Shown: positions 2,347-23,045 of the stretch, piece by piece | How the letters are laid out: every line of letters starts with the position of its first letter | Position numbering within the stretch: position 1 is the first letter of the stretch | Origin: Tolypothrix brevis GSE-NOS-MK-07-07A | GTDB taxonomy: Bacteria; Cyanobacteriota; Cyanobacteriia; Cyanobacteriales; Nostocaceae | Direction of reading: 5' to 3' | Assembly: GCA_019358985.1 (NCBI GenBank) | Contig: JAHHIJ010000031.1 | Span: 7,839 to 31,838 of the forward strand | DNA length: 24,000 bases | Notes under the pieces: generated by a model | The model's input: only the letters and a program-made list of their open reading frames with translations | Told to the model about the DNA's origin: nothing | The model's database searches: none | Translations under genes and position numbers: made by a program

Positions 2347-5300
2347 CTACATATGCATCAAAAATTGCCCCTCTTTAGCTGACTCCACTTTCTTCGGAAA
2401 TAAAAACTTACCAAACTTCGCATACAACGCAGGTAAAACTACTAAAGTTATTGCAGTAGAAGTAAACAAACCACCAAATACAACTACAGATAACGGTTGC
2501 AAAAGTTCCTGTCCTGGTCCACCTTGAATCACCATCGGGGCTAAACCTAATGAGGAAGTTAAAGCTGTCATCAAAATCGCATTTAGTCGTTCCATTGACC
2601 CTTTGGTAATAACTTCCTTTAATGGCATTCCTTCAGCATACTTACTATTATAATTGTCCACCAATAACAAACCGTTGCGAGTTGCTACCCCAAACAAGGA
2701 AACAAACCCAACTAAAGACGCAACCGAAATTACCCCACCAGTTAAAGCAACAGCGATTACACCTCCTACCAAGGCAATTGGTAAGTTAATCATAATCATC
2801 GCGGTAGAAGGGATAGATTTAACTGAAAGGTACATTAATACTGTAATCGCAATGAATGCGATCGCGCTAAAAACGAGAATATTTTGGGTTGCACGTTCTT
2901 CAGCTTCAAACTGACCTGCATACTGAATAAAATAACCCGCAGGTACTTGGATATTACTTTTAACTTTGCTTTCAATATCAGTGACAATCGAGCGTAAATC
3001 TCGACCTTTAGCATTTGCAGAAACGACTATCAAGCGGGAAACGTTTTCACGGTTGATTGTATTGGGTCCCGTTCCATTAACAATAGTAGCAACGTTACCT
3101 AAAGGTACTTTCTGTCCATCGGGAGTATCAATCAACAAATTACGGATGGTTTCTAAATTTTGCCGTGCTTCAGGTTTTAACCATACAATCAAATCAAAAG
3201 ACTGTTGGTTTTCTAAGACCTTAGAAACAACTTTACCATTGAGTGCAGTTTCAATTGTATCTGCCAAATCCCCCACCGTATGACCGTAACGACTAGCTGC
3301 ATCACGGTCAAATTTAATTTGAATTTGTGGTACTGGAAGTTGTGGTTCGAGTTGTAAGTCAATGACACCATCAACTGTTGCCATTTGTTGCTCTACTTGC
3401 TGCCCAATTTTCCTTAACTGCGCTAAATCGGAACCGAAAATTTTCACAGCTATGGAACTACGAACCCCAGATAAAACTTCGTCCATTCGGTGCGAAAGAA
3501 ATCCGCCAACATTAGCTGCTGCACCCGGTATTTTCTCAAATGCTGCTCGCATCACTCCTAAAGTTTTTTCCCGGTTTCGCATTCCCTCATCGGTTAATTC
3601 AATGTCAAGGTGAGCAACGTTTACACCTGCGGCTTCGGAATCACCTGTAGCACGTCCAGAACGAGTTTGAATAAATTTAAATCTCTGGTCATTTTTTAAT
3701 GCTTCTTCAATTACATAACCAGCTTTGGTACTACTTTCTAGAGAAACAGTTGGGTAAGATATCAAAGTATTGACCATCGTTTGCTCTTGAAACTCTGGTA
3801 AAAATGCTCTACCGAAAGAAGGAATAATCGCAATTGATGCGACTGTTAAAACTGTTGCGATACCCATAATCAAGAAGGAATTTCGCATGGAAAAATTTAA
3901 ACAAGAGCTATAAATTGCCTTACAAAATCTAGCTAGCCAAGGTTCTCGCTTTGTTACCTTTGTATTCGGTAATAAAATTGCACATAAAGCTGGAGAAACC
4001 AACAAAGATTCTAAACTAGAAATGACAACTACCACTAAATAAGAAATACCCATTGGGGTAAAAATTCGACCTTCAATACCCGGTAAGGTAAAAATTGGCG
4101 AGAAAACAATAATACCAATAATCGTTGCACCAACCAGCGAATCGCGTACTTCTTGAGAACCTTCAAAAATAATTTCTAACGGTGATAATGGATCGTCAGA
4201 AGTTTTATTTTCCCGTAATCGGCGATAAGTATTTTCACCGTATACAATTGCATCATCAATTGCAGTCCCAATCGCAACTGCTAAACCACCCAAAGTCATT
4301 GTATTTAGTCCAATTCCCAACCATGAAAGTGCTAGCATCCCAAACAGTAATGTTAATAAAAAGTCTAACAAACATACTGCGAGGATACGCCAATTCATTA
4401 AAAAAGGAATCAGAATAATTGCGGCAATAATACTACCTTGAATCAAAGAGGAACGAACGTTGTCAACAGAAGATTCAATATAACTGTCTTGGCGAAATGT
4501 AGTAGTAACTTTAATATTTTTTGGCAATCCGGCTTTGATTTCTGCCATTGTTTTTTCTACCGCACGGGTGACAGTCGGAGTATCAACTATTGGCTGCTTA
4601 TTCACCATGACAATAATTGCGGGTTTGCCATTAAAACTGCCATCACCCCGTTTTAGTGCTGCCCCAATTTGGACATCGGCTACATCTTGCAATCTTACGG
4701 GAACGCCATTACGTGAAATAATAGTTGATTTTTTCAAGTCTTCAATTGATTCGATTCTACCGATACCCCGAATCAACTGTTCTGTATCTGGCGTAATCAA
4801 AAATCCACCAGGAGCATTGACGTTTGCTTTTTGAGTTGCTTGCGTAACTTGGTCTAGAGTAATATTAAAAGCTGCTAATTTTACTGGGTCAACTAGTACT
4901 TGAAATTGACGTTCGTCACCACCAAAACTTAAAATTTGGCTGACTCCAGGAACAGCTAAAAGGCGATTTGTTACTTGCCAATCGACGATTCGACGGGCTT
5001 CCATGAGGGGGTTAGGAGTTGCGGATGTAGCTTGTCCGTCCGGGGTAGAATTGGAGGAGTTTTCCCCATCTTCGACGGTAAAAGCGTACTGGACGACTAA
5101 ACCAACGGGGGAAGTGGTGGGGGATATTTGTGGTGTTTCAACTCCTGGAGGCAGCTTGTTAACCGCTTGTTGTAATCGTTCGGTAATTAGCTGCCGTGCT
5201 TGATAAATGTCAGTTGACGAATTAAATATCACCCTCACCGCAGAAATACCAGCCGCACTCGACGAACGAACTGCGGTTACTCCCGGTGTGCCGTTAATTG

Positions 5301-5514
5301 CACTCTCTATTGGTAAAGTTACTAGCGATTCGACTTCCTCCGGCGCGAGTCCAGGGGCTTCGGCTTGGATTTCTACTTGCGGCGGTGCAAAGGCTGGCAG
5401 TACATCCAACGGCATCTGAGGAATGACGTAGAATGTCCAAAACGAGACAATAATTGTAGCTAATACGACGAGCCAGCGTCGGTTAATTACCCACCTTACA
5501 ATGTTTCCAAGCAT
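2347..5514 (-). CDS. Heavy-metal efflux RND permease, CusA/CzcA family
   Basis: 1055-aa ORF with 12-TM RND architecture and two large periplasmic loops. The TM4 motif AIGTAIDDAIVYGEN resembles, from my recollection, the E. coli CusA motif (AVGAMVDAAIVMIEN) more than the CzcA motif (DFGIIVDGAVVIVEN). Confidence 0.95.
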   Translation of the reverse strand: MLGNIVRWVINRRWLVVLATIIVSFWTFYVIPQMPLDVLPAFAPPQVEIQAEAPGLAPEEVESLVTLPIESAINGTPGVTAVRSSSAAGISAVRVIFNSSTDIYQARQLITERLQQAVNKLPPGVETPQISPTTSPVGLVVQYAFTVEDGENSSNSTPDGQATSATPNPLMEARRIVDWQVTNRLLAVPGVSQILSFGGDERQFQVLVDPVKLAAFNITLDQVTQATQKANVNAPGGFLITPDTEQLIRGIGRIESIEDLKKSTIISRNGVPVRLQDVADVQIGAALKRGDGSFNGKPAIIVMVNKQPIVDTPTVTRAVEKTMAEIKAGLPKNIKVTTTFRQDSYIESSVDNVRSSLIQGSIIAAIILIPFLMNWRILAVCLLDFLLTLLFGMLALSWLGIGLNTMTLGGLAVAIGTAIDDAIVYGENTYRRLRENKTSDDPLSPLEIIFEGSQEVRDSLVGATIIGIIVFSPIFTLPGIEGRIFTPMGISYLVVVVISSLESLLVSPALCAILLPNTKVTKREPWLARFCKAIYSSCLNFSMRNSFLIMGIATVLTVASIAIIPSFGRAFLPEFQEQTMVNTLISYPTVSLESSTKAGYVIEEALKNDQRFKFIQTRSGRATGDSEAAGVNVAHLDIELTDEGMRNREKTLGVMRAAFEKIPGAAANVGGFLSHRMDEVLSGVRSSIAVKIFGSDLAQLRKIGQQVEQQMATVDGVIDLQLEPQLPVPQIQIKFDRDAASRYGHTVGDLADTIETALNGKVVSKVLENQQSFDLIVWLKPEARQNLETIRNLLIDTPDGQKVPLGNVATIVNGTGPNTINRENVSRLIVVSANAKGRDLRSIVTDIESKVKSNIQVPAGYFIQYAGQFEAEERATQNILVFSAIAFIAITVLMYLSVKSIPSTAMIMINLPIALVGGVIAVALTGGVISVASLVGFVSLFGVATRNGLLLVDNYNSKYAEGMPLKEVITKGSMERLNAILMTALTSSLGLAPMVIQGGPGQELLQPLSVVVFGGLFTSTAITLVVLPALYAKFGKFLFPKKVESAKEGQFLMHM

Positions 5515-5558: not shown

Positions 5559-5597
5559 TTTCTAGTTTTTCATGCTCGGATGAAATTGGGATGAAAT
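5559..5597 (-). promoter_or_regulatory. Direct-repeat operator (ATTTCATCCCAATTTCATC, 5579-5597), then 14 nt, then a -10 box TAGAAA (5559-5564)
   Basis: Third copy of the motif, about 45 nt upstream of the RND ATG at 5514. Confidence 0.65.
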
Positions 5598-5646
5598 ATG
5601 TAAAGGCTGAATTATGAATTATAAATTATCAAATTCTGTAGCTTGT

Positions 5647-6000
5647 TCAAAATGGAAGCGACATAATCTGATTAATCCATTCCTCAGCCGTAGACGCTTC
5701 CCAAACCAGGATGAGTGCATCGATCGCTTCACTGATTGGGAGACTTTGGGAAATAATCAGAACGCCAGAACTGGTTTGTGACACGACAAACTGACCAAAC
5801 TCAGTTGGCATGGTTTTACGATCGTGTGTGACAAGCACTCTGCCATCTCGTGCTGCAATTGCCAGAACCTCTGGATCTTTGATGCCTTCAAGCCTTGCTT
5901 CGTTGGCTGACTGAAAATCAAGGTTGGATTGTCTGCGTGTAGCCCCAACTACAATTGCTTGTCTGAGATCGGCATCGGCTTGGAATCGAACTTTCGTCAT
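5647..6000 (-). CDS. DUF5615-like (PIN/Mut7-C-like) putative toxin
   Basis: 117-aa ORF (MTKVRFQADADL..VLVTHDRKTMP..). Its start overlaps the stop of the upstream DUF433-like ORF in an ATGA junction (5997-6000), which is typical type II TA-like coupling. Confidence 0.8.
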   Translation of the reverse strand: MTKVRFQADADLRQAIVVGATRRQSNLDFQSANEARLEGIKDPEVLAIAARDGRVLVTHDRKTMPTEFGQFVVSQTSSGVLIISQSLPISEAIDALILVWEASTAEEWINQIMSLPF

Positions 6001-6329
6001 ACCGCGCCTTGTTTGCGCTCTTGAGCTGCTTTTAATTTTTGGTACAGCAGTGGATTTTTTTCTCTAAAGGATTGTTGCAGTTGGTGAAACTCTGCTTCAC
6101 CTTGCTTTAAGTAGGCATCAAGCATCTCCCGGTTGGCAAGGTAGAAGGCGATCGCACCATATACCTGTTCTAACGAAAGTAAGGGGAAATTTTGAGCAAT
6201 GCTTTCTGGGGATTCTCCATTTAAGAAGGAATAAATGACTGAATCGAGGGAAACGCGGGTTCCTTCGATCCAGTATCCTCCCTGGCGTTGCTCGATATAT
6301 TGCTTTGTTGGGGTGGGTGATAATGTCAT
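5997..6329 (-). CDS. DUF433-like putative antitoxin (HTH)
   Basis: 110-aa ORF (..GGYWIEGTRVSLDSVIYSFLNGESPESIAQNFPLLSLEQVYGAIAFYLANREMLDAYL..), which matches the DUF433 pattern from memory. It is translationally coupled to the downstream DUF5615-like ORF. Confidence 0.8.
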   Translation of the reverse strand: MTLSPTPTKQYIEQRQGGYWIEGTRVSLDSVIYSFLNGESPESIAQNFPLLSLEQVYGAIAFYLANREMLDAYLKQGEAEFHQLQQSFREKNPLLYQKLKAAQERKQGAV

Positions 6330-6383
6330 AGGGCTACTGACGATCTCTACCTCAATGTTAAGCGTCTTTCATAACCTTTACTG

Positions 6384-8048
6384 CTACTCATCTTTCTTGC
6401 CCTTCTCTACCACAGACGCATCCGCCAAAGGTGATGAATGTTTATCTAGATAAACCTCAGTTTCATACCTGAACTCGTTGTAATCTAAATTACCTGCTGG
6501 AATTAAACGGGAATGCTTGCGACTCGACCAAAAACTTCCAGCCGCAAAAGCACCAGCCGCAACTATAGTTCCCCCACCTGCTACTAATAACCACAAAGGT
6601 AAAGCAAAATTATTACTTTTAACCGTAGTCTCTTCTTCGTGATTATCTTCCTCTACTTTTTTACTACCACTTCGTAATGACTGCGCGTATAATTGCGTAG
6701 CTCGTTGAGTAACAATCATATCGCCATCAAATAAACCTGTTTTCACCTCCACTATATCCCCAGAGGTTTGACCCAATATGACTTCAGCAGCTTGGTAAGC
6801 ACTACCATTTTGGACGTAGACAATTTTTTTACCATTACCATCAACCATTGCAGAGGTGGGAATCGCCAAAGTGGGTGCAGATTGTTGACCTGTCAATACT
6901 TCCAGTTCGGCAAACATTCCGGGTTTGAGTTGTCCACCTGGGTTATCCACTACGGCTTGTACGGGTACTACTCGTGTTTCTCCTTGTACAGATGTGCCAA
7001 TTCGGGTAATTTTTCCTGTGAAAGTGCGATCGCGTAAACTCGCAACTTTCAAATTCACCCTTTCACCAATTTTTACCTTACCTAAATCTTTTTCGTAAAT
7101 ATTCGCTGTCGCAAACACCCGACTATCGTTAACAATAGTCATCAATCTACCACCTGCATCGTTAAAAGTTTGACCGATGGTTACTTCGCGGTCAGCTATT
7201 TTACCAGAAATCGGAGCCGTCACTGTCACCAATCCCTTAGAATTGGGGAGGTTTCCTAATTGTTGCAGCCGAGTATTATAAATATCTCCACTGATGCGTA
7301 GTTGTACTTGTGCTACCTGAAGGGCAGATTGAGCGCGTTTAACTTGTGCTTCGGCTTCGATTACATCGCGTCTGCTACTGGCTGAAACGAGTTTAGCTTT
7401 TGCTTCTGCTAATTGGGTTTGAGATTCCAAAGCATTACGACGCGGTAAAGCACCAGCCAAGGCTAATTGTGTATCTTTAGTATATTTTTCTTGAGCAAAC
7501 GCGACTTGACTTTGTGCTTGCGCTGTCTCCGCTTGGGCTATTTGTAAATATCGCTCTCTATTTTGTTGAGCTAATGTTAAATCGGCTTGTGCTTGTTGCG
7601 CTTGTGCGATCGCCGAAGCGCGTTTTTCTTGAGATGTAACGCGCAGCTCAACTAAATCGGGACTTGTGACAACGGCGACAGGTTGACCTTTTGTGACTGT
7701 TGCACCAGGCTCTACCAATAACTCTACTACTTTCGCCCCTGTAATTGGAGTCGTGACTTCAACTTTTTGGCTGGGTAGCGTTTCAATTTGTCCGGTGGTT
7801 TTTATCCCAAGAGCGAGAGGCTGACGTTTTACGGGTTCGACTTTAATCCCTAAGCGTTGGGCTGTTTCTGCATCAACATTTACTGAACTATTTGCATCCC
7901 CTCCAGCTTGAAACGAACTTGCACCACTGTGATCGTGTCCAGCACCAGCAAGGACAATACCTTGAGTAGTTAGCAATAGCAAGCTCAGTATTGCAGAAGA
8001 AACATGGAGGAGTGATGCAGTTTGATTTTGAGAACGGTTAAATCGCAT
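6384..8048 (-). CDS. RND efflux membrane fusion protein (HlyD/CusB-type periplasmic adaptor) with an extra C-terminal TM tail
   Basis: 554-aa ORF with an N-terminal signal/anchor and a His cluster (AGHDHSG). It has a long Ala/Gln coiled-coil hairpin (AQAQQAQADLTLAQQNRERYLQIAQAETAQAQ..) and beta-barrel/lipoyl-type segments. The C-terminal ~100 aa contain a TM helix, ALPLWLLVAGGGTIVAAGAFAAGSFW. Confidence 0.93.
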   Translation of the reverse strand: MRFNRSQNQTASLLHVSSAILSLLLLTTQGIVLAGAGHDHSGASSFQAGGDANSSVNVDAETAQRLGIKVEPVKRQPLALGIKTTGQIETLPSQKVEVTTPITGAKVVELLVEPGATVTKGQPVAVVTSPDLVELRVTSQEKRASAIAQAQQAQADLTLAQQNRERYLQIAQAETAQAQSQVAFAQEKYTKDTQLALAGALPRRNALESQTQLAEAKAKLVSASSRRDVIEAEAQVKRAQSALQVAQVQLRISGDIYNTRLQQLGNLPNSKGLVTVTAPISGKIADREVTIGQTFNDAGGRLMTIVNDSRVFATANIYEKDLGKVKIGERVNLKVASLRDRTFTGKITRIGTSVQGETRVVPVQAVVDNPGGQLKPGMFAELEVLTGQQSAPTLAIPTSAMVDGNGKKIVYVQNGSAYQAAEVILGQTSGDIVEVKTGLFDGDMIVTQRATQLYAQSLRSGSKKVEEDNHEEETTVKSNNFALPLWLLVAGGGTIVAAGAFAAGSFWSSRKHSRLIPAGNLDYNEFRYETEVYLDKHSSPLADASVVEKGKKDE

Positions 8049-8167
8049 CGCCTAGAGTTTCCTTGAATAGAGGGGACAGTCACGCCTATGTGTATGGGAG
8101 CACATTCACCAAGAAATAGCTACATAGCTTTTGGAATATATTTCAAAAGCCAGCTTGAGCTTCTTAG

Positions 8168-8206
8168 TTAACATTCTTTCACACTGAAATGAAATTAGGA
8201 TGAAAT
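8168..8206 (-). promoter_or_regulatory. Direct-repeat operator (ATTTCATCCTAATTTCATT, 8188-8206), then 14 nt, then a -10 box TGTTAA (8168-8173)
   Basis: Fourth copy of the motif, about 120 nt upstream of the membrane fusion protein ATG at 8048. It has one mismatch in the distal half-site and the weakest -10 box. Confidence 0.55.
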
Positions 8207-8319
8207 ATAGAATGGATGAGAAGCATTCAACCTTAGCAAGAGGGGGTAAGAAATTGGAGGGGGATTGAAACCGCTTTTTTCCTTTCCCCTTTCCCCCTCC
8301 CTTAGTAAACAATATGATA

Positions 8320-8540
8320 TGGAAGACAAGTCACTAACCCAGGGCTAAAGCCGCTGGGCTTGTAAGAGGGGAATTCACCACTACCCAAATCAAGTTAAAA
8401 CTTGTGTCTAGCTATTTCAACTGAATTGCCTGGATGTGGTAGTCCAAAACACGTTAAGAATGCCTCCCTAGTTTTTAACCTCTGTGGCAGTCAGTAGCGA
8501 AGGGATATATACACCTAGTAATAGGGCTTATTGTAAATGT
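8320..8540 (+). ncRNA. Candidate omega RNA scaffold for IsrB (boundaries approximate; the guide is expected at or just beyond the 5' end)
   Basis: About 220 nt with no ORF immediately 5' of isrB on the same strand, which is where IscB/IsrB omega RNAs are encoded. It contains local hairpins (8338-8358; CAAGTT/AACTTG at 8391-8404) and possible long-range pairs (ACTACC at 8380-8385 with GGTAGT at 8438-8443; CCCTA at 8466-8470 with TAGGG at 8522-8526). It was not folded computationally. Confidence 0.45.
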
Positions 8541-9586
8541 TTGTTCCAGTAGTTGACCAAAACAACCGTCCCTTGATGCCAACGACCCCTAGCAGGGCAA
8601 AGCGTTGGATTAAGTTAGGTAAGGCTACACCATTTTTCAAAAAAGGAGTATTTTGTGTTCGATTAAATCAAGAACCATCTAATAGAAACACGCAACCAAT
8701 AGCGGTTGGAGTTGACCCTGGCAGTAAGCGCGAAGGCTACACGGTTAAGTCACAGTCGCATACTTATCTAAACATCCAATCTCATGCTGTTGACTGGGTT
8801 AAAGACCATGTTGAAGTTCGCCGAAATATGCGACGTGCTAGACGAGTTCGTAACACCCCATGCCGACAGAATCGCAAAAACAGGCTTGTAAATAAACAAA
8901 AGTTACCACCATCAACTAAAGCTAGATGGCAATGGAAATTACGTATTTGCAAGTGGTTAACATTAATGTTCCCTGTTTCGACTTTTGTTGTTGAAGATAT
9001 CAAAGCTAAGACGTGGAAGGGTGCAAGAAAGTGGAACGTTATGTTTAGCCCGTTAGAAGTTGGGAAGGGATGGTTTTATTCTGAGCTAAAAAGACTTGCC
9101 AATCTTGAAACTAGAACTGGCAACGACACTTGCGAAATGCGTCAAAGTTTAGGGTTGAAAAAATCAAAAAACAAGTTATCTAGCAAGTTTGACGCTCACT
9201 GCGTTGATTCTTGGGTACTTGCTAATTGGTTCGTCGGGGGGCATCTCAAACCTGAGAATACCCAATTGACTGAAATTGTGCCGCTAGAATTTCATCGTCG
9301 TCAACTACATCGACTACAACATTCTGTTGGGCATCTCCGCCCCAGATATGGAGGGACGATTAGCGTGGGATTTAAGCGCGGCTCAGTAATTAAACATCCT
9401 AAATTTGGTTTTTGTTATGTGGGTGGTTGGCAGGAATCCCCAACAAAGAAAGACCCAGCTAGAAAAACAATTAGTTTACACAGTCTAGATACTGGTAAAC
9501 GATTAACCCAAAATGCAATTCCTAATGATTGTAAATTCAAGTCTTACGGCTCGTGGAGAATATCCACTGCGACTAAAGTCGCTTGA
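8537..9586 (+). CDS. isrB: IsrB-type OMEGA RNA-guided nuclease/nickase (PLMP domain, split RuvC, Arg-rich bridge helix, C-terminal TID; no HNH)
   Basis: 349-aa ORF. The motifs in order are: N-terminal ..DQNNRPLMPTTPSRAKRWIKLGKA (PLMP motif); IAVGVDPGSKREGY (RuvC-I Asp); RRNMRRARRVRNTPCRQNRKNR (RRxRR bridge helix); TFVVEDIK (RuvC-II Glu); about 65 aa without any Cys/His HNH block; FDAHCVDSWVLA (RuvC-III His/Asp); and a Gly/Lys-rich C-terminal beta domain (GFKRGSVIKHPKFGFCYVGGW..). Confidence 0.85.
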   Translation: MFVPVVDQNNRPLMPTTPSRAKRWIKLGKATPFFKKGVFCVRLNQEPSNRNTQPIAVGVDPGSKREGYTVKSQSHTYLNIQSHAVDWVKDHVEVRRNMRRARRVRNTPCRQNRKNRLVNKQKLPPSTKARWQWKLRICKWLTLMFPVSTFVVEDIKAKTWKGARKWNVMFSPLEVGKGWFYSELKRLANLETRTGNDTCEMRQSLGLKKSKNKLSSKFDAHCVDSWVLANWFVGGHLKPENTQLTEIVPLEFHRRQLHRLQHSVGHLRPRYGGTISVGFKRGSVIKHPKFGFCYVGGWQESPTKKDPARKTISLHSLDTGKRLTQNAIPNDCKFKSYGSWRISTATKVA

Positions 9587-9849
9587 GTCGTGTTTCCTAG
9601 GAAGGGCTGAAGCCCCTGAGTTTCCACACATCCCACGACAACTTATGAATAAGAGTAAAATTTAAGTATTCTTGTCGGACAGTTCAAAAAATCTCTGAAA
9701 ATTAGTAATAACACAGAAGAGTAAATCTAGTATAAAAAATTGAAGTGATAAGAAATATCGCGATTTAATTGTCAAATAAAATTCACAGGTTGTTAAATGT
9801 AATCTTTCAGCATCGGCTTGTAGGTACTTGAAAAAACTAAAGGAAATAG

Positions 9850-11547
9850 ATGGGACAAGGTTTGTTGCAAATTGGGCTAACGCTCTGCATTGTCATAGGA
9901 ATAACTCCGTTCCTGGGTAAATACATAGCCCGTGTCTTCTTAGGAGAAAAAACGCTACTTGACTTAGTAATGCAGCCTGTAGAAAGATTGATTTATACAT
10001 TAGCAGGTGTCCGCAAACAAGATAATATGACTGGTTGGCAGTATGCGCGGGCAATACTGTACACTAATTTTGTTATGGGCGTTTTCGTATATCTGTTAAT
10101 AGCGCTTCAGAAATTTTTGCCCTTCAATCCCATGCGGTTAGGGACGCCTACTTGGGATACAATATTACACACTGCGATTTCATTTCTGACAAATACCGAT
10201 CAACAACATTATGCTGGTGAAACAACCTTAAGTTATTTCAGCCAGACAGCAGCTTTAGGCTTTTTAATGTTTACCTCAGCAGCGACGGGTTTAGCGGTAG
10301 GAATTGCCTTTATTCGCGGCTTAACAGGTAGACCTTTAGGAAATTTTTACGCCGATTTGACTCGTGGCATCACACGAATTTTACTACCAATTTCGGTGAT
10401 TGGAGCGATCGCTTTACTTTTAACAGGTGTACCGCAAACGTTAGCTGCACCGCAAGTTGTCAGAACCCTCGAAGGAAGTACGCAGTACATCGCCAGAGGA
10501 CCAGTAGCATCTTTTGAGATAATCAAACAACTAGGCGAAAATGGTGGGGGTTTTTTTGGGGTTAACTCGGCACATCCCTTTGAAAATCCCAATGGCATTT
10601 CTAACTTAATCGAAGAAATCGCCATGATTTCGATTCCAGCGGCATTGATTTATACCTACGGTTTATTTGCGAATAATATCAAACAAGCTTGGCTACTTTT
10701 CTGGATGGTATTTATAATTTTTGTAATTTTAGTTCTGATTACCGCTTCTGGTGAACTGCAAGGAAATACTCTAATTAATACCACTTTAGGAACAGACCTA
10801 CCGAATTTAGAAGGCAAAGAAGTCAGATTTGGCTGGGCACAAACTGCATTATGGGCAGTTATGACCACTGCAACCATGTGCGGCGCCGTCAACGGTATGC
10901 ACGATTCTCTCATGCCGAGTGGTGGCTTTTCAACCCTTTTCAACTTATTTTTGCAGATTATTTGGGGCGGTCAAGGGACAGGCACCGCTTACTTATTTAT
11001 TTACCTAATTCTCACGGTATTTTTAACTGGGTTAATGGTGGGACGCACTCCAGAATTTTTCGGACGCAAAATAGAAAAGCGAGAAATTGTCCTTGCGAGC
11101 GTAGTTTTACTGGTACACCCAATTGTAGTTTTAATTCCCACTGCGATCGCCTTAACTTCTCCCAACACTTTATCTGGAATTACCAACCCAAGTTTTCACG
11201 GTATCTCCCAAGTAGTTTACGAATATGCTTCAGCTGCTGCTAACAACGGTTCTGGTTTGGAAGGATTAGCTGATAGCCAACCTGCACGTACAGCTTTATG
11301 GTGGAACTTAAGTACTTGTGTGAGCATCTTAGTAGGACGCTACGTACCAATTATTGCCATCCTACTTTTAGCTGAGAGTATGAGACACAAACCAACAGTG
11401 CCAGAAACCCCAGGTACATTAAGAACCGATTCTCTGCTATTTACTATTGTTACCGCTGGAGTAATTCTGATTTTAGGAGTACTGACATTCTTCCCCGTTT
11501 TAGCATTAGGTCCCATCGCTGAAGGTTTTAAACTCGCTGTCCGTTAG
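9850..11547 (+). CDS. kdpA: Potassium-transporting ATPase subunit A
   Basis: 565-aa polytopic membrane ORF with the typical KdpA N-terminus (..LGKYIARVF..) and selectivity-filter-like NNGSG and GENGGGF segments. It is followed by kdpB and kdpC. Confidence 0.96.
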
Positions 11548-11715
11548 AAGAGGAGGGGGGGAGAGGGGGAGAGGGGGAGTGAGGGAGTGGGGGGCAGGAG
11601 GGGGCAGGGGAGAATTTACTTCGTCATCTTCTTCCACTCCCTCACTCCCCCCCTCCCCCCCTCACTCCCCCCCTCCCCCACTCTCCCAATACCCAATACC
11701 CAATGCCCCAAATAT
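11548..11715 (+). repeat. Intercistronic G-rich / C-rich inverted repeat plus a CCCAATA heptamer triplet
   Basis: The G-rich arm spans 11548-11613 and carries at least 7 G-runs. The C-rich arm spans 11628-11688. A perfect 17-bp pairing core joins GGGGAGTGAGGGAGTGG (11574-11590) with CCACTCCCTCACTCCCC (11634-11650). CCCAATA, CCCAATA and CCCAATG follow at 11685-11705, just before the kdpB ATG. Confidence 0.85.
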
Positions 11716-13917
11716 ATGAATCGCGTTGCAACTACTTCTAAAAAGAAACCTCCACGTTCTCTCAAAAGCGATCGCCGTCAATCGCCGAAAAAGTCTAAAG
11801 TAAATAATACAGGACTTTATCTCAGAGCAATTAAAGATGCTTTTGTCAAGCTAAATCCCAAATCTGCAATCAAAAACCCAGTCATGTTTTTGGTTTGGGT
11901 AGGCACAATTATTACTCTTTTGGTCACGATCGATCCTTATTTATTTGGACAAGTCCCAGGCAATAATTTACAACGTTTTAACGGCTTAATTACGGGAATT
12001 TTATTCTTTACGGTGTGGTTTGCCAATTTTGCCGAAGCTGTGGCGGAAGGACGCGGTAAAGCTCAAGCTGATGCTTTGCGCTCAACTCAGTCAGAAACTC
12101 CCGCGAGAAAACTCTCCCCTGATGGCTCAATTACCGAAGTACCTTCCACCAGCCTCAGACAAAGTGATACTGTATATGTAGTAGCTGGTGATATCATTCC
12201 CGCCGATGGGGAAGTGATTATGGGTATCGCTTCGGTGGATGAATCGGCAATTACTGGGGAATCTGCACCAGTATTGAAGGAGTCAGGCTCGGATGTTGCA
12301 AGTTCAGTTACTGGTGGTACGCGGATTATTTCCGATGAATTAATTATACGCATTACATCTGACCCAGGTAAAGGCTTTATTGACCGGATGATTGCCTTGG
12401 TGGAAGGTGCAGAACGCAGCAAAACACCGAATGAAATTGCTTTGACGGTGTTATTGGCAGTTCTGAGCTTGGTATTTTTATTTGTGGTGGTGACATTGCC
12501 AGCGATCGCCTTTTATGTTAAAAGTGAAATCAGCGTACCAATTTTAATTGCTCTGTTGGTGGCATTAATCCCCACAACCATCGGTGGTTTGCTGAGTGCG
12601 ATCGGTATTGCCGGTATGGATCGAGTTGCCCAATTTAACGTTATTGCTACTTCGGGACGAGCAGTAGAAGCTTGCGGTGACATTAACACTTTACTTCTCG
12701 ATAAAACAGGTACAATTACCCTTGGCAACCGCTTGGCAGAGGAATTTATCCCGATTAACGGTCACTCAATCGAGGAAATTGCCAGCGTAGCTTTGGCAGC
12801 TAGCGTCTTTGATGATACACCAGAAGGTAAATCCATTGTCAGACTGGCAGAAAAGTTAGGGGCAAAAATTGAATTTGACCACAATCAGTCAGAACCAGTT
12901 GACTTTTCCGCCAAAACGCGCATGAGTGGTACTAACTTGCCAGGTGGATATCAAGCGCGGAAAGGAGCAGTAGGAGCAATTCAGGGATTTGTGCGTTCAC
13001 GAAGTGTCTCCGTTCGTGAAGCGTCTCCGCTAGGAGAAGGAGAATCGCGAAGTGTCTCTGTTCGTGAAGCGTCTCCGCTAGGAGAAGGACAATCGCGTAA
13101 CGGACAAGATTCCCTAGAACTCAACGCTGCTTACGAACAAGTTTCCCACCAGGGAGGTACACCCTTAGCCGTTTGCTTAGATCAGGAAATTTACGGTATC
13201 ATCTATCTTAAAGATATTGTAAAACCGGGTCTTCGCGAACGTTTTGAGCAGTTGCGACGCATGGGTGTGCGTACTGTCATGCTAACCGGCGACAATCGCA
13301 TTACCGCTTCTGTAATTGCCCAGGAAGCTGGAGTTGATGACTTTATTGCCGAAGCAACACCAGAAGATAAAATTTCCGTAATTCAAGAAGAACAAGCAAA
13401 AGGCAAACTTGTAGCGATGACGGGGGACGGTACTAACGATGCTCCGGCTCTCGCTCAAGCAAATGTCGGTGTAGCAATGAATACAGGGACTCAAGCAGCT
13501 AAAGAAGCGGCAAATATGGTAGATTTGGACTCTGATCCCACTAAGCTAATTGATATTGTTTCTATTGGTAAACAATTGTTGATTACTCGTGGAGCATTGA
13601 CAACATTTTCCCTCGCTAATGATATTGCTAAATATTTTGCGATTATTCCAGTGCTATTTGCTACTGCTAATCTGCAAAGTTTAAATATCATGAAATTGAC
13701 CAGTATTAATTCTGCAATACTGTCAGCGCTGATTTACAATGCTCTAATTATTCCAGCTTTGATTCCTTTAGCGTTACGAGGTGTGAAGTTTAGACCGTTA
13801 ACTGCTAATGAATTGCTACAACGTAATATCTTAATTTATGGGTTGGGTGGGGTGATTGCACCATTTATTGCAATTAAATTGATTGACATGTTGATTACGG
13901 TGGTAGGTTTAGCGTGA
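11716..13917 (+). CDS. kdpB: Potassium-transporting ATPase subunit B (P-type ATPase catalytic subunit)
   Basis: P-type ATPase motifs are present: DKTGTIT (phosphorylation site), MLTGDN, and [17 protein letters not shown] place the start at ATG 11716 ([10 protein letters not shown]..) rather than the track start 11587, which would translate the C-rich repeat arm as poly-Pro. Confidence 0.96.
12997..13092 (+). repeat. In-frame 48-bp tandem duplication inside kdpB ([16 protein letters not shown] / [16 protein letters not shown])
   Basis: Two consecutive 48-nt units (12997-13044 and 13045-13092) differ at 5 positions. Each contains the small palindrome CACGAA/CGCGAA..TTCGTG. A third unit begins (TCGCG) and then diverges. 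Confidence 0.9.
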
Positions 13918-17658: not shown

Positions 17659-17692
17659 TGTTTCCGAATAGACATAAGAGTAGAATTTAATT

Positions 17693-17874
17693 ATGCGTTA
17701 ACCGAAATTCTTGATTAGACTATTCTGTGCTACGTCTCTACATTCTCTGATTGGATGCGTTGTGCGATCGCATTCTCGATTATATGCGTTAACCGAAATT
17801 CTTGATTAGACTATTCTGTGCTACGTCTCTACATTCTCTGATTGGATGCGTTGTGCGATCGCATTCTCGATTAT
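17693..17874. repeat. 91-bp tandem duplication (2 units: 17693-17783 and 17784-17874)
   Basis: The unit ATGCGTTAACCGAAATTCTTGATTAGACTATTCTGTGCTACGTCTCTACATTCTCTGATTGGATGCGTTGTGCGATCGCATTCTCGATTAT is repeated exactly, read by eye. The second unit contains the 3' end and stop of the 76-aa gene. Confidence 0.9.
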
Positions 17875-22040: not shown

Positions 22041-22248
22041 GAATGCCTCTCCTACAAAAACTCGTGTGAAAATTAATACAGACTTGTGTTTCTACTTTAG
22101 CCATTTGCCATTCCTCTTTCCCTGAGTAAAAACCACCAAAATTGAAGTGAAGTTTACGGTAAAATCTGATAGTTTTTCCCTAATTTTACTTAAAATCTCT
22201 AGAATTAAAAGTATAAACAAATCATTTCTTGTTCTTAAGCCCTTGAAT

Positions 22249-22494
22249 ATCGTTTTGAAGTACCCAAACATCGTTTTGAAGTACCCAAATATCGTTTTGA
22301 AGTACCCAAATATCGTTTTGAAGTACCCAAATATCGTTTTGAAGTACCCAAATATCGTTTTGAAGTACCTAAATATCGTTTTGAAGTACCCAAATATCGT
22401 TTTGAAGTACCTAAATATCGTTTTGAAGTACCCAAATATCGTTTTGAAGTACCCAAACATCGTTTTGAAGTACCCAAACATCGTTTTGAAGTAC
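22249..22494. repeat. 21-bp tandem array, 11 full units plus one 15-bp partial unit (unit ATCGTTTTGAAGTACCCAAAT)
   Basis: Units were counted by hand. Units 1, 10 and 11 end ..AAAC. Units 6 and 8 have CCT in place of CCC. All other units are identical. Confidence 0.95.
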
Positions 22495-22631
22495 TTGCGC
22501 TGCTTTTATGCCGCGATCGCAATCTTGTAATTGGGACGATAGCGAATACTATACACCGACGATCGCGCTAAAATGTTCCAGTGCCGTGATTTATTAGCGA
22601 TCGCTCAAGTTCCTCAACGCAAACCATATAT

Positions 22632-23045
22632 ATGGCAAAAGATTTGTATCACGAGCAAGTTAAACGCGCTCTTGAAAAAGACGCATGGCAAATAACTCAC
22701 GATCCTTACGAATTGCGTATAGGTGGAGTTGAAATGTATATAGACATTGGGGCGGAACAGATTATTGGTGCCGAAAGGGGAAATGATAAAATTGCGGTTG
22801 AGGTGAAAAGTTTTATTAGTCCCTCAAGGATTTCTGATTTTCATTTGGCGCATGGACAGTTTTTAGATTATCGCTATGCTTTAGAAGATAAAGATCCAGA
22901 GCGAATTTTATATTTAGCAGTACCTCGTTTTGTTTATCAAACCTTTTTTAACTTAGCCTTTATTAATAGTGTGGTAGAACGCAGTCAAATTAAGCTTTTA
23001 GTTTATGACTTAGAAAAGGAGACAATTGAGCAATGGATAAAGTAG
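22632..23045 (+). CDS. xisH: XisH family protein (fdxN-element excision controlling factor-like; endonuclease-like fold)
   Basis: 137-aa ORF, MAKDLYHEQVKRALEKDAWQITHDPY..IDIGAE..IAVEVKSF.., which is the typical XisH pattern. Confidence 0.88.
   Translation: MAKDLYHEQVKRALEKDAWQITHDPYELRIGGVEMYIDIGAEQIIGAERGNDKIAVEVKSFISPSRISDFHLAHGQFLDYRYALEDKDPERILYLAVPRFVYQTFFNLAFINSVVERSQIKLLVYDLEKETIEQWIK

Follow-up and report, generated by a model that had tools for sequence, protein, structure and literature searches.

We analyzed a stretch of 24,000 nucleotides from the cyanobacterium Tolypothrix brevis GSE-NOS-MK-07-07A (contig JAHHIJ010000031.1, positions 7,839 to 31,838 of the forward strand), here called the window, whose own numbering is used throughout. 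Positions 8330–9644 very probably correspond to an ISC1-type element that encodes an omega RNA together with IsrB, a small Cas9 relative and RuvC nickase lacking an HNH domain, and the working cycle proposed below is modeled on published IsrB and IscB systems. As judged from its sequence, the element is a non-autonomous, 1315-bp member of the IS200/IS605 superfamily on the + strand, with the termini 5′-GTCA... and ...CTT-3′ delimited by empty sites and by the edges of homology. An initial annotation of the same DNA, made by a model from the letters alone, had placed a solo IsrB in such an element at 8300–9650; the element lies inside that interval, and its ends are now refined to 8330–9644.

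The isrB gene (8537–9586, + strand) is an open reading frame (ORF) of 349 aa with an ATG start, and all of the motifs that the initial annotation had listed for it are present. The PLMP motif is formed by P12-L13-M14-P15, the segment GVDPGSKREGY contains D60, the arginine-rich bridge helix (RRxRR) RRNMRRARRVRN spans residues 95–106, FVVEDIK contains E153, and FDAHCVDSW contains H221 and D224. The putative catalytic D/E/H/D set is therefore intact, as had been proposed. The 67 residues that link E153 to H221 contain neither an HNH nor a CxxC block, also in agreement with the earlier reading, and the sole Pfam match of the protein is RRXRR (E 1e-34, residues 3–157). The NCBIfam IscB equivalog model matches the N-terminal half only and scores 96.8 bits against a cutoff of 175, which is expected for an HNH-less relative. 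The best relative of solved structure is IsrB from Desulfovirgula thermocuniculi (DtIsrB, 8DMB), which aligns with residues 3–305 at E 3e-37 with the single sequence and at E 2e-47 with a family profile, and the E153–H221 linker aligns with the HNH-linker region of that protein. Solved IscBs match the first ~120–155 residues only.

An AlphaFold model built from an alignment of 55 diverse sequences reached a predicted local distance difference test score (pLDDT) of 88.9 and a predicted template modeling score of 0.85. This model replaced an earlier one from a shallow alignment (70–86% identity) that was unusable at pLDDT 48. Foldseek again returned 8DMB as the top match, over the whole length including the C-terminal beta domain (E 2e-28, template modeling (TM) scores of 0.80/0.85, root-mean-square deviation 3.2 Å), with IscBs at TM 0.54–0.69 and RuvC resolvases far lower. 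The PLMP region was modeled at pLDDT above 90 and aligns to the PLMP domain of DtIsrB. Thus, by sequence and predicted fold the 349-aa product is an IsrB, with a PLMP domain, a split RuvC carrying the D-E-H-D set and a bridge helix, a C-terminal domain that would interact with the target-adjacent motif (TAM), and no HNH; the motif-based assignment held up in profile searches and in the model alike.

Residue conservation was assessed across 31 diverse representatives (33–64% identity). D60, E153 and D224 are present in 31/31 representatives and H221 in 29/31, while R322 is found in 28/31 and Q325 in 20/31, with arginine in the latter position in another 8. In DtIsrB, recognition of the G and A in the NTGA TAM falls to R323 and Q326 (Hirano et al. 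2022, PMC9581776). R322 and Q325 of the window protein have the same three-residue spacing and align with the K-R-x-x-Q motif of P0223, the closest DtIsrB relative in the set, and we infer from this mapping that they may read the TGA of the TAM. The C-terminal fragment gave no useful alignment to the sequences of the Protein Data Bank, and none to 8DMB past position 305. The ratio of nonsynonymous to synonymous substitution rates (dN/dS) is 0.045–0.064 against the six closest relatives at a dS of 0.84–1.4 (near saturation), and the ORF is intact in 81/81 copies; by these sequence measures, isrB is under strong purifying selection. The family comprises 4911 homologues, with 205 representatives of 50%-identity clusters at E < 1e-30, and the architecture of ~345 aa is kept throughout. 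An exact-sequence look-up returned no database record for the window IsrB itself.

Directly 5′ of isrB and on the same strand, positions 8330–8536 (207 nt) are predicted to encode a HEARO-like omega RNA scaffold. The initial annotation had described this upstream region as free of ORFs and containing hairpins, and indeed 8330–8536 has no + strand ORF and contains a hairpin at 8338–8358; the sole nearby ORF (68 aa, minus strand) lies at 8106–8312. Infernal aligned the Rfam HEARO model (RF02033) with 8330–8512 on the + strand at 37.2 bits and E 1.3e-5, covering model positions 1–211. The omega RNA that had been anticipated at this place is thus recovered as a sub-threshold match, and covariation argues strongly for it. 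A consensus from 74 distinct sequences contains 45 pairs, compensatory changes occur in 28 of these, and covariation supports 10 helices. The share of paired cells is 96.4% compared to 83.5% in shuffles, double-change cells number 461 compared to 117, and the covariation score of 0.445 falls to at most 0.091 when the partners are slid. The consensus helices can be placed on the window sequence. In addition, the omega RNA remains 85–92% identical to that of the six closest relatives despite dS values of 0.84–1.4, and on this sequence measure it too is under strong purifying selection.

Relatives show that the scaffold varies in places. Its variable region (alignment A1 columns 95–135 and 230–258) forms an extra stem-loop in many relatives and not in the window copy, and two relatives carry further insertions in the omega RNA (L018:3725–4030 and L013:3163–3423). 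Other RNA features near related elements include a cobalamin riboswitch (L011:3471–3616) and a group II intron domain (L018:2762–2837).

The ends of the element were defined by comparison with 80 loci (L001–L080) from filamentous cyanobacteria, including Nostoc, Scytonema, Brasilonema, Microcoleus, Calothrix and others. Homology across these loci begins abruptly at 8330, and in close relatives it stops immediately 5′ of ATGA. The sequence GTCA[CT] opens 76/81 copies, 203–276 nt 5′ of the isrB ATG, and ATGA or GTGA adjoins the opposite end of 70/81 copies. The initial annotation had named conservation confined to the ORF as the pattern that would speak against it. We observed the opposite, with the RNA and both ends conserved up to sharp edges.

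A search with the right flank alone uncovered three metagenome contigs (L083, L084 and L085) that carry the kdp region without the element. A pattern of the joined flanks gave no match; the relative has T for C at position −3. With a slash at the insertion point, the L084 empty site reads ...AAACAATATGATATGGAAGATAA/ATGAATAAGAG... and the window reads ...AAACAATATGATATGGAAGACAA/(8330–9644)/ATGAATAAGAG..., and this alignment shows that 1315 bp were inserted at N/ATGA without duplication of the target site. The ATGA itself (9645–9648, + strand) is host sequence outside the element, since it is present in the L084 empty site, and is the predicted TAM; L083 and L085 have ATCA at this place. Cyanobacterial ISC1 elements have a 5′-GTCA terminus and an N/ATGA target (Kapitonov et al. 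2016, PMC4810608), and the agreement of the window terminus and target with ISC1-1_MA from that work supports the ISC1-type assignment.

Related genomes hold several copies. No tnpA (Y1 transposase) gene was found among the ORFs of at least 120 aa in the 24-kb window, in line with the initial annotation, or near related copies in a crude motif scan of the 80 loci, and most IsrB loci likewise lack it. The non-autonomous character claimed earlier fits the absence of tnpA from the ORFs searched.

Imperfect subterminal hairpins are present at both ends, without terminal inverted repeats. The hairpin at the omega-RNA end (8338–8358, + strand; CCCAGGGC-TAAA-GCCGCTGGG) doubles as the initial stem-loop of the omega RNA; it corresponds to helix 2 of the consensus, in which 5/7 pairs covary, and folds as DNA with −6.9 kcal/mol (z −2.2 relative to shuffles). 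The isrB-distal terminal region (9587–9644, + strand) contains a hairpin around 9596–9622, with the core GGGC-TGAA-GCCC at 9604–9615, a GTTTCC motif on either side and an outer inverted repeat, GTCGTG/CACGAC. As single-stranded DNA this hairpin has z −1.7, and both ends are only modestly better than shuffles. The initial annotation had proposed that the two ends carry related hairpins, and both of the cores on which it relied were found: AGGGCTAAAGCC at 8341–8352, and AGGGCTGAAGCCC at 9603–9615 between GTCGTG (9587–9592) and CACGAC (9634–9639). Up to 80 related loci keep both hairpins in position and show compensatory changes in the stems, and the ends have a common design of a stem, a CT[A/G]AAG-like loop and then G-rich/TTTC sequence. 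Relatives end on the isrB-distal side with a covarying hairpin followed by GGTTTC, 12–20 nt and the ATGA junction, and the window region is 66–83% identical to that of the six closest relatives.

The hairpins lie ~8 nt from the terminus at the omega-RNA end and ~25 nt from the other terminus. In IS608, the cleavage sites precede the left-end hairpin by ~19 nt and follow the right-end hairpin by ~10 nt. With this spacing as a yardstick, the geometry would fit if the antisense strand of isrB were the strand on which TnpA acts, which would make the omega-RNA end the transposon right end. The omega-RNA end is likewise the right end in the TnpA convention (Meers 2023). The initial annotation had put the guide at the left end: the predicted guide does adjoin the omega-RNA end, and calling this end "left" departs from this convention as a matter of naming.

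These features suggest a working cycle similar to those published for IsrB and IscB. Transcription from the upstream flank would yield an RNA with a 5′ guide of ~20 nt (CAAUAUGAUAUGGAAGACAA) followed by the scaffold, and IsrB would bind this omega RNA and read the TGA of the TAM through R322 and Q325. The complex would then nick the non-target strand wherever the flank joins ATGA directly, as in an empty site. Such sites would arise by excision of the element as single-stranded DNA, for which a Y1 transposase (TnpA) provided in trans would use the two subterminal hairpins. The nick would promote recombinational re-copying of the element, a form of restorative homing. An occupied site would escape nicking, since GTCA rather than NTGA comes after the guide match there. 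Published IsrB TAMs are NTGA or NTG (Hirano 2022, PMC9581776), and the ATGA at the element end agrees with them. A nickase is predicted rather than a double-strand nuclease because there is no HNH domain.

The predicted guide comes from the 23 nt of original target flank at 8307–8329 (+ strand), of which the last 20 (8310–8329, CAATATGATATGGAAGACAA) would form the guide, a role that we infer from IsrB biology (Hirano 2022, PMC9581776). This flank is unique within the window, and 22/23 nt are identical to the L084 sequence that immediately precedes the ATGA of the empty site (L084:5475–5500). Synteny with the empty-site contigs is strongly one-sided. On the 3′ side of the element, the window is ~90% identical to L083–L085 through the kdp operon, whereas on the 5′ side it shares 8307–8329 only, about one guide length. 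Upstream of 8307 the window is unrelated, and L084 and L085, 89% identical there for 1.5 kb, carry a PriA helicase gene. The breakpoint therefore coincides with the 5′ edge of the predicted guide, beside a G-rich/C-rich inverted repeat (8230–8306). This could be a coincidence, with a chance of ~25 in 380 nt of intergenic DNA, or it might be a sign that the element takes the guide segment along or that both are protected together. Recombination between element copies was considered as the source of the upstream break and rejected for the window, which still has 23 nt of its original kdp flank. Such an exchange may apply to another pair of loci, L005 and L006, which have the right flank in common and not the left. 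The inverted repeat blocks themselves (GGAGGGGG.../...CCCCCTCC) occur at 8230–8306, 5′ of the guide flank, and again at 11552–11593 and 11639–11683 after kdpA, and look like dispersed hairpin-forming repeats.

Comparison of the insertion sites revealed a second pattern. In 46/70 copies with a defined end, the flanking ATG opens an ORF of at least 100 codons, and after orthologous insertions were collapsed, 39/62 independent sites (63%) were the start codon of a host gene. By comparison, 7.4% of non-genic ATGA and 2.6% of all ATGA in the same flanks are such starts (binomial p 8e-29), where background starts are the mechanically called starts of long ORFs. The count is conservative, with at least two sites mis-split by the pattern and several "short" ORFs of 46–90 codons. 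Examples of these junctions at the isrB-distal end are L003:5108, L060:5116, L019:5113, L068:5084 and L030:5109. The host proteins include AccC, LeuA, pyruvate:ferredoxin oxidoreductase, two single-stranded-DNA-binding proteins (SSBs), thioredoxin and MoaE, and a secF gene is also among the targets. In ten such host proteins, the Pfam domain match opens at profile position 1–2 within the first residues, which shows the flanking ATGs to be native start codons. The host genes are co-oriented with the element, and at 29/44 such sites so is the nearest upstream ORF, at a median distance of 174 nt. Shine-Dalgarno (SD)-like motifs at the element end showed no association with start-codon sites (Fisher p 0.31). 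The window copy is an exception, as its ATG opens only 6 codons and the same sequence stands in the empty site.

We tentatively propose, with somewhat less than even confidence, that this lineage docks between the 5′ untranslated region (UTR) of a host gene and its ATG, so that ATGA amounts to "start codon plus A", and that it does so in the orientation of the gene. In this arrangement, transcription from the host promoter would produce a leader made up of guide, omega RNA and isrB; the 5′ UTR of the host gene would serve as the guide, and translation of that gene would proceed from the element end. It is plausible that the host promoter reads the 5′ UTR (that is, the guide), the omega RNA, isrB and the host gene in turn. 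No description of start-codon docking was found in a full-text literature search, which did not extend to the original HEARO paper. That paper, by Weinberg in 2009, reportedly noted integration at ATGA or GTGA. Start codons are unmentioned in the description of ISC1 elements by Kapitonov and colleagues (2016, PMC4810608). If true, start-codon docking would explain how OMEGA elements without promoters achieve transcription of their guide RNAs, why hosts tolerate them beside essential genes (accC, leuA, ssb, trxA) and why the NTGA TAM is retained, and it provides a testable link between the target choice of a transposon and host gene expression.

Several observations weigh against a working IsrB/omega-RNA element at 8330–9644. 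The HEARO score of 37 bits is below the Rfam gathering score of 83, and likewise none of 16 relatives passes. Because window and relatives fall short together, the cyanobacterial IsrB RNA would be a divergent subtype outside the curated model, and the predicted RNA is probably HEARO/omega-like in function yet outside RF02033 by Rfam's criterion. The fold of the single RNA sequence is not more stable than shuffles (z +0.34), so thermodynamic stability provides no evidence and covariation alone counts. A promoter and terminator scan of 8000–9900 stayed at chance level (4 consensus promoter matches, 3.6 expected), the gene 5′ of the element is divergently transcribed, and the ancestral promoter may be lost because the DNA 5′ of the 23-nt flank has been replaced. 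Finally, the right-end hairpin of the window has a 4-bp perfect core, compared to 8–9 bp in the closest relatives. The shortened hairpin and the presence of GACAACTT where close relatives have GAGGTTTT would be expected of an immobile relic whose gene and RNA are still readable after expression or mobilization was lost, as would the lack of a promoter signal in the scan, the upstream flank cut to 23 nt by rearrangement and the lack of tnpA among the window ORFs. We nevertheless consider a relic unlikely. The ORF is intact with all catalytic and TAM-reading residues, the window sequence accommodates the consensus helices of the omega RNA, and the divergence from relatives is nearly all synonymous, which is unexpected for a decaying copy.

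The same selective constraint raises the question of whether the element has effectively been domesticated, with either IsrB itself or the whole element, used as a transcription/translation cassette, working for the host (for instance to drive or regulate the downstream gene) instead of being a selfish homing system. A dN/dS of ~0.05 at near-saturated dS, an ORF that is unbroken in each of the 81 copies from many genera, the absence of TnpA from the window ORFs and the scanned loci, and the co-oriented placement of 63% of the relatives' independent insertions exactly on host start codons could all be read in this way. However, it is not only the catalytic residues but also both transposon ends that are conserved, insertion sites vary between genomes, filled and empty alleles coexist and there are several copies per genome. 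The window copy, moreover, lies away from a gene start, and the SD-like end motifs are unassociated with start-codon sites. We therefore regard domestication as quite improbable. The chance that the protein is not a true IsrB but a pseudogene-like IscB with a recently deleted HNH domain is close to nil. The N-terminal match to the IscB model would agree with such an origin, but the ~345-aa architecture is family-wide, the E153–H221 linker aligns with the corresponding region of DtIsrB, and the fold is closer to IsrB than to any IscB. Together, these results favor an ISC1-type element that encodes an omega RNA and a true IsrB.

In its genomic setting, the element is flanked 5′ by a divergent resistance-nodulation-division (RND) efflux operon and 3′ by kdpABC. 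The 5′ neighbors are a HlyD/CusB-type adaptor gene (6384–8048, minus strand) and an AcrB-type pump gene (2347–5514, minus strand), between which the annotation of the identical Logan contig L082 places a toxin-antitoxin-like DUF433/DUF5615 pair (~5590–6330, minus strand). The insertion point lies 205 nt 5′ of kdpA, which starts at 9850 and is followed by kdpB, a KdpF-containing ORF, kdpC and a gene for a KdpD N-terminal protein. Look-ups with KdpA and the HlyD-like protein gave no empty site, and the only exact matches to these two proteins are on Logan contigs L081 and L082 (run SRR11678125). Both contigs terminate within the element, at window positions 9576 and 8492, which suggests that the assembler broke at a repeated isrB and hence that the source genome has several copies.

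Further features of the window lie outside the element. An 18-mer, ATGAAATT[A/G]GGATGAAAT, occurs in four + strand copies (1037–1054, 2190–2207, 5580–5597 and 8189–8206; 0 expected), at least three of which lie 66–141 nt upstream of the starts of minus-strand genes or operons (a DUF2808 gene, the acrB-type pump gene and the hlyD-type adaptor gene); the 18-mer could be an operator or promoter element common to them. At 13000–13097, kdpB has a 48-nt unit that is repeated twice while preserving the frame; L083, otherwise 90% identical, lacks ~92 nt of this region. A perfect 91-nt tandem duplication spans 17692–17874, and a 21-nt tandem array (11.9 copies, 96% matches) spans 22246–22494; the ORFs over this array (22092–22481 on the minus strand and 22147–22530 on the + strand) are probably repeat artefacts. 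A XisH-family gene is located at 22632–23045, near the window end.

The protein family, its RNA, the TAM, the N/ATGA target and the activity of cyanobacterial IsrBs have already been published, and the window element is another member. As an IsrB locus it therefore adds little to published knowledge. Its practical value is that of a well-delimited, compact nickase/omega-RNA pair that is predicted from sequence to be functional, with a natural pair of filled and empty alleles that defines target and TAM; what merits follow-up is the start-codon pattern and the truncated flank.

Among known systems, DtIsrB (8DMB; PMC9581776) has the same order of PLMP, RuvC-I, bridge helix, RuvC-II, HNH linker, RuvC-III, WED and TAM-interacting (TI) domains in ~350 aa, with the D-E-H-D set and the TAM-reading R..Q pair in common and the model agreement (TM 0.80/0.85) noted above. 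Its omega RNA is also encoded directly 5′ of the ORF, and its NTGA TAM agrees with the window ATGA. In contrast, the two proteins are only ~30% identical, the DtIsrB scaffold occupies 262 nt 5′ of the ATG compared to 207 nt in the window, and the window protein comes from a mesophilic cyanobacterium. ISC1-1_MA and other cyanobacterial ISC1 elements (PMC4810608) are, by their description, similar: they are non-autonomous, encode only the HNH-less IscB1 (= IsrB), begin with 5′-GTCA, have subterminal hairpins and insert at N/ATGA without target duplication, as established from empty sites. ISC1-1_MA differs in its Microcystis host, compared to the Nostocales-type host here, and in its 3′ terminus (...CG, compared to ...CTT). 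The IsrBs of Dolichospermum (DsIsrB) and Crocosphaera (CwIsrB) cut with their cognate omega RNAs at NTG TAMs (Hirano 2022, PMC9581776), and on the basis of their description we expect them to be functional equivalents of the window IsrB. The HEARO family (RF02033) matches the window RNA end to end in the right place and orientation, with the 5′ GUCA and first hairpin aligned, but the score is 37 bits compared to the gathering score of 83, and several model helices are unmatched. Finally, IscB (for example OgeuIscB, 7XHT) and Cas9 share the PLMP/RuvC/bridge-helix core and RNA-guided targeting beside a 3′ motif, whereas the window protein has neither an HNH domain nor a recognition (REC) lobe and reaches a TM of only 0.64–0.69 to IscBs.

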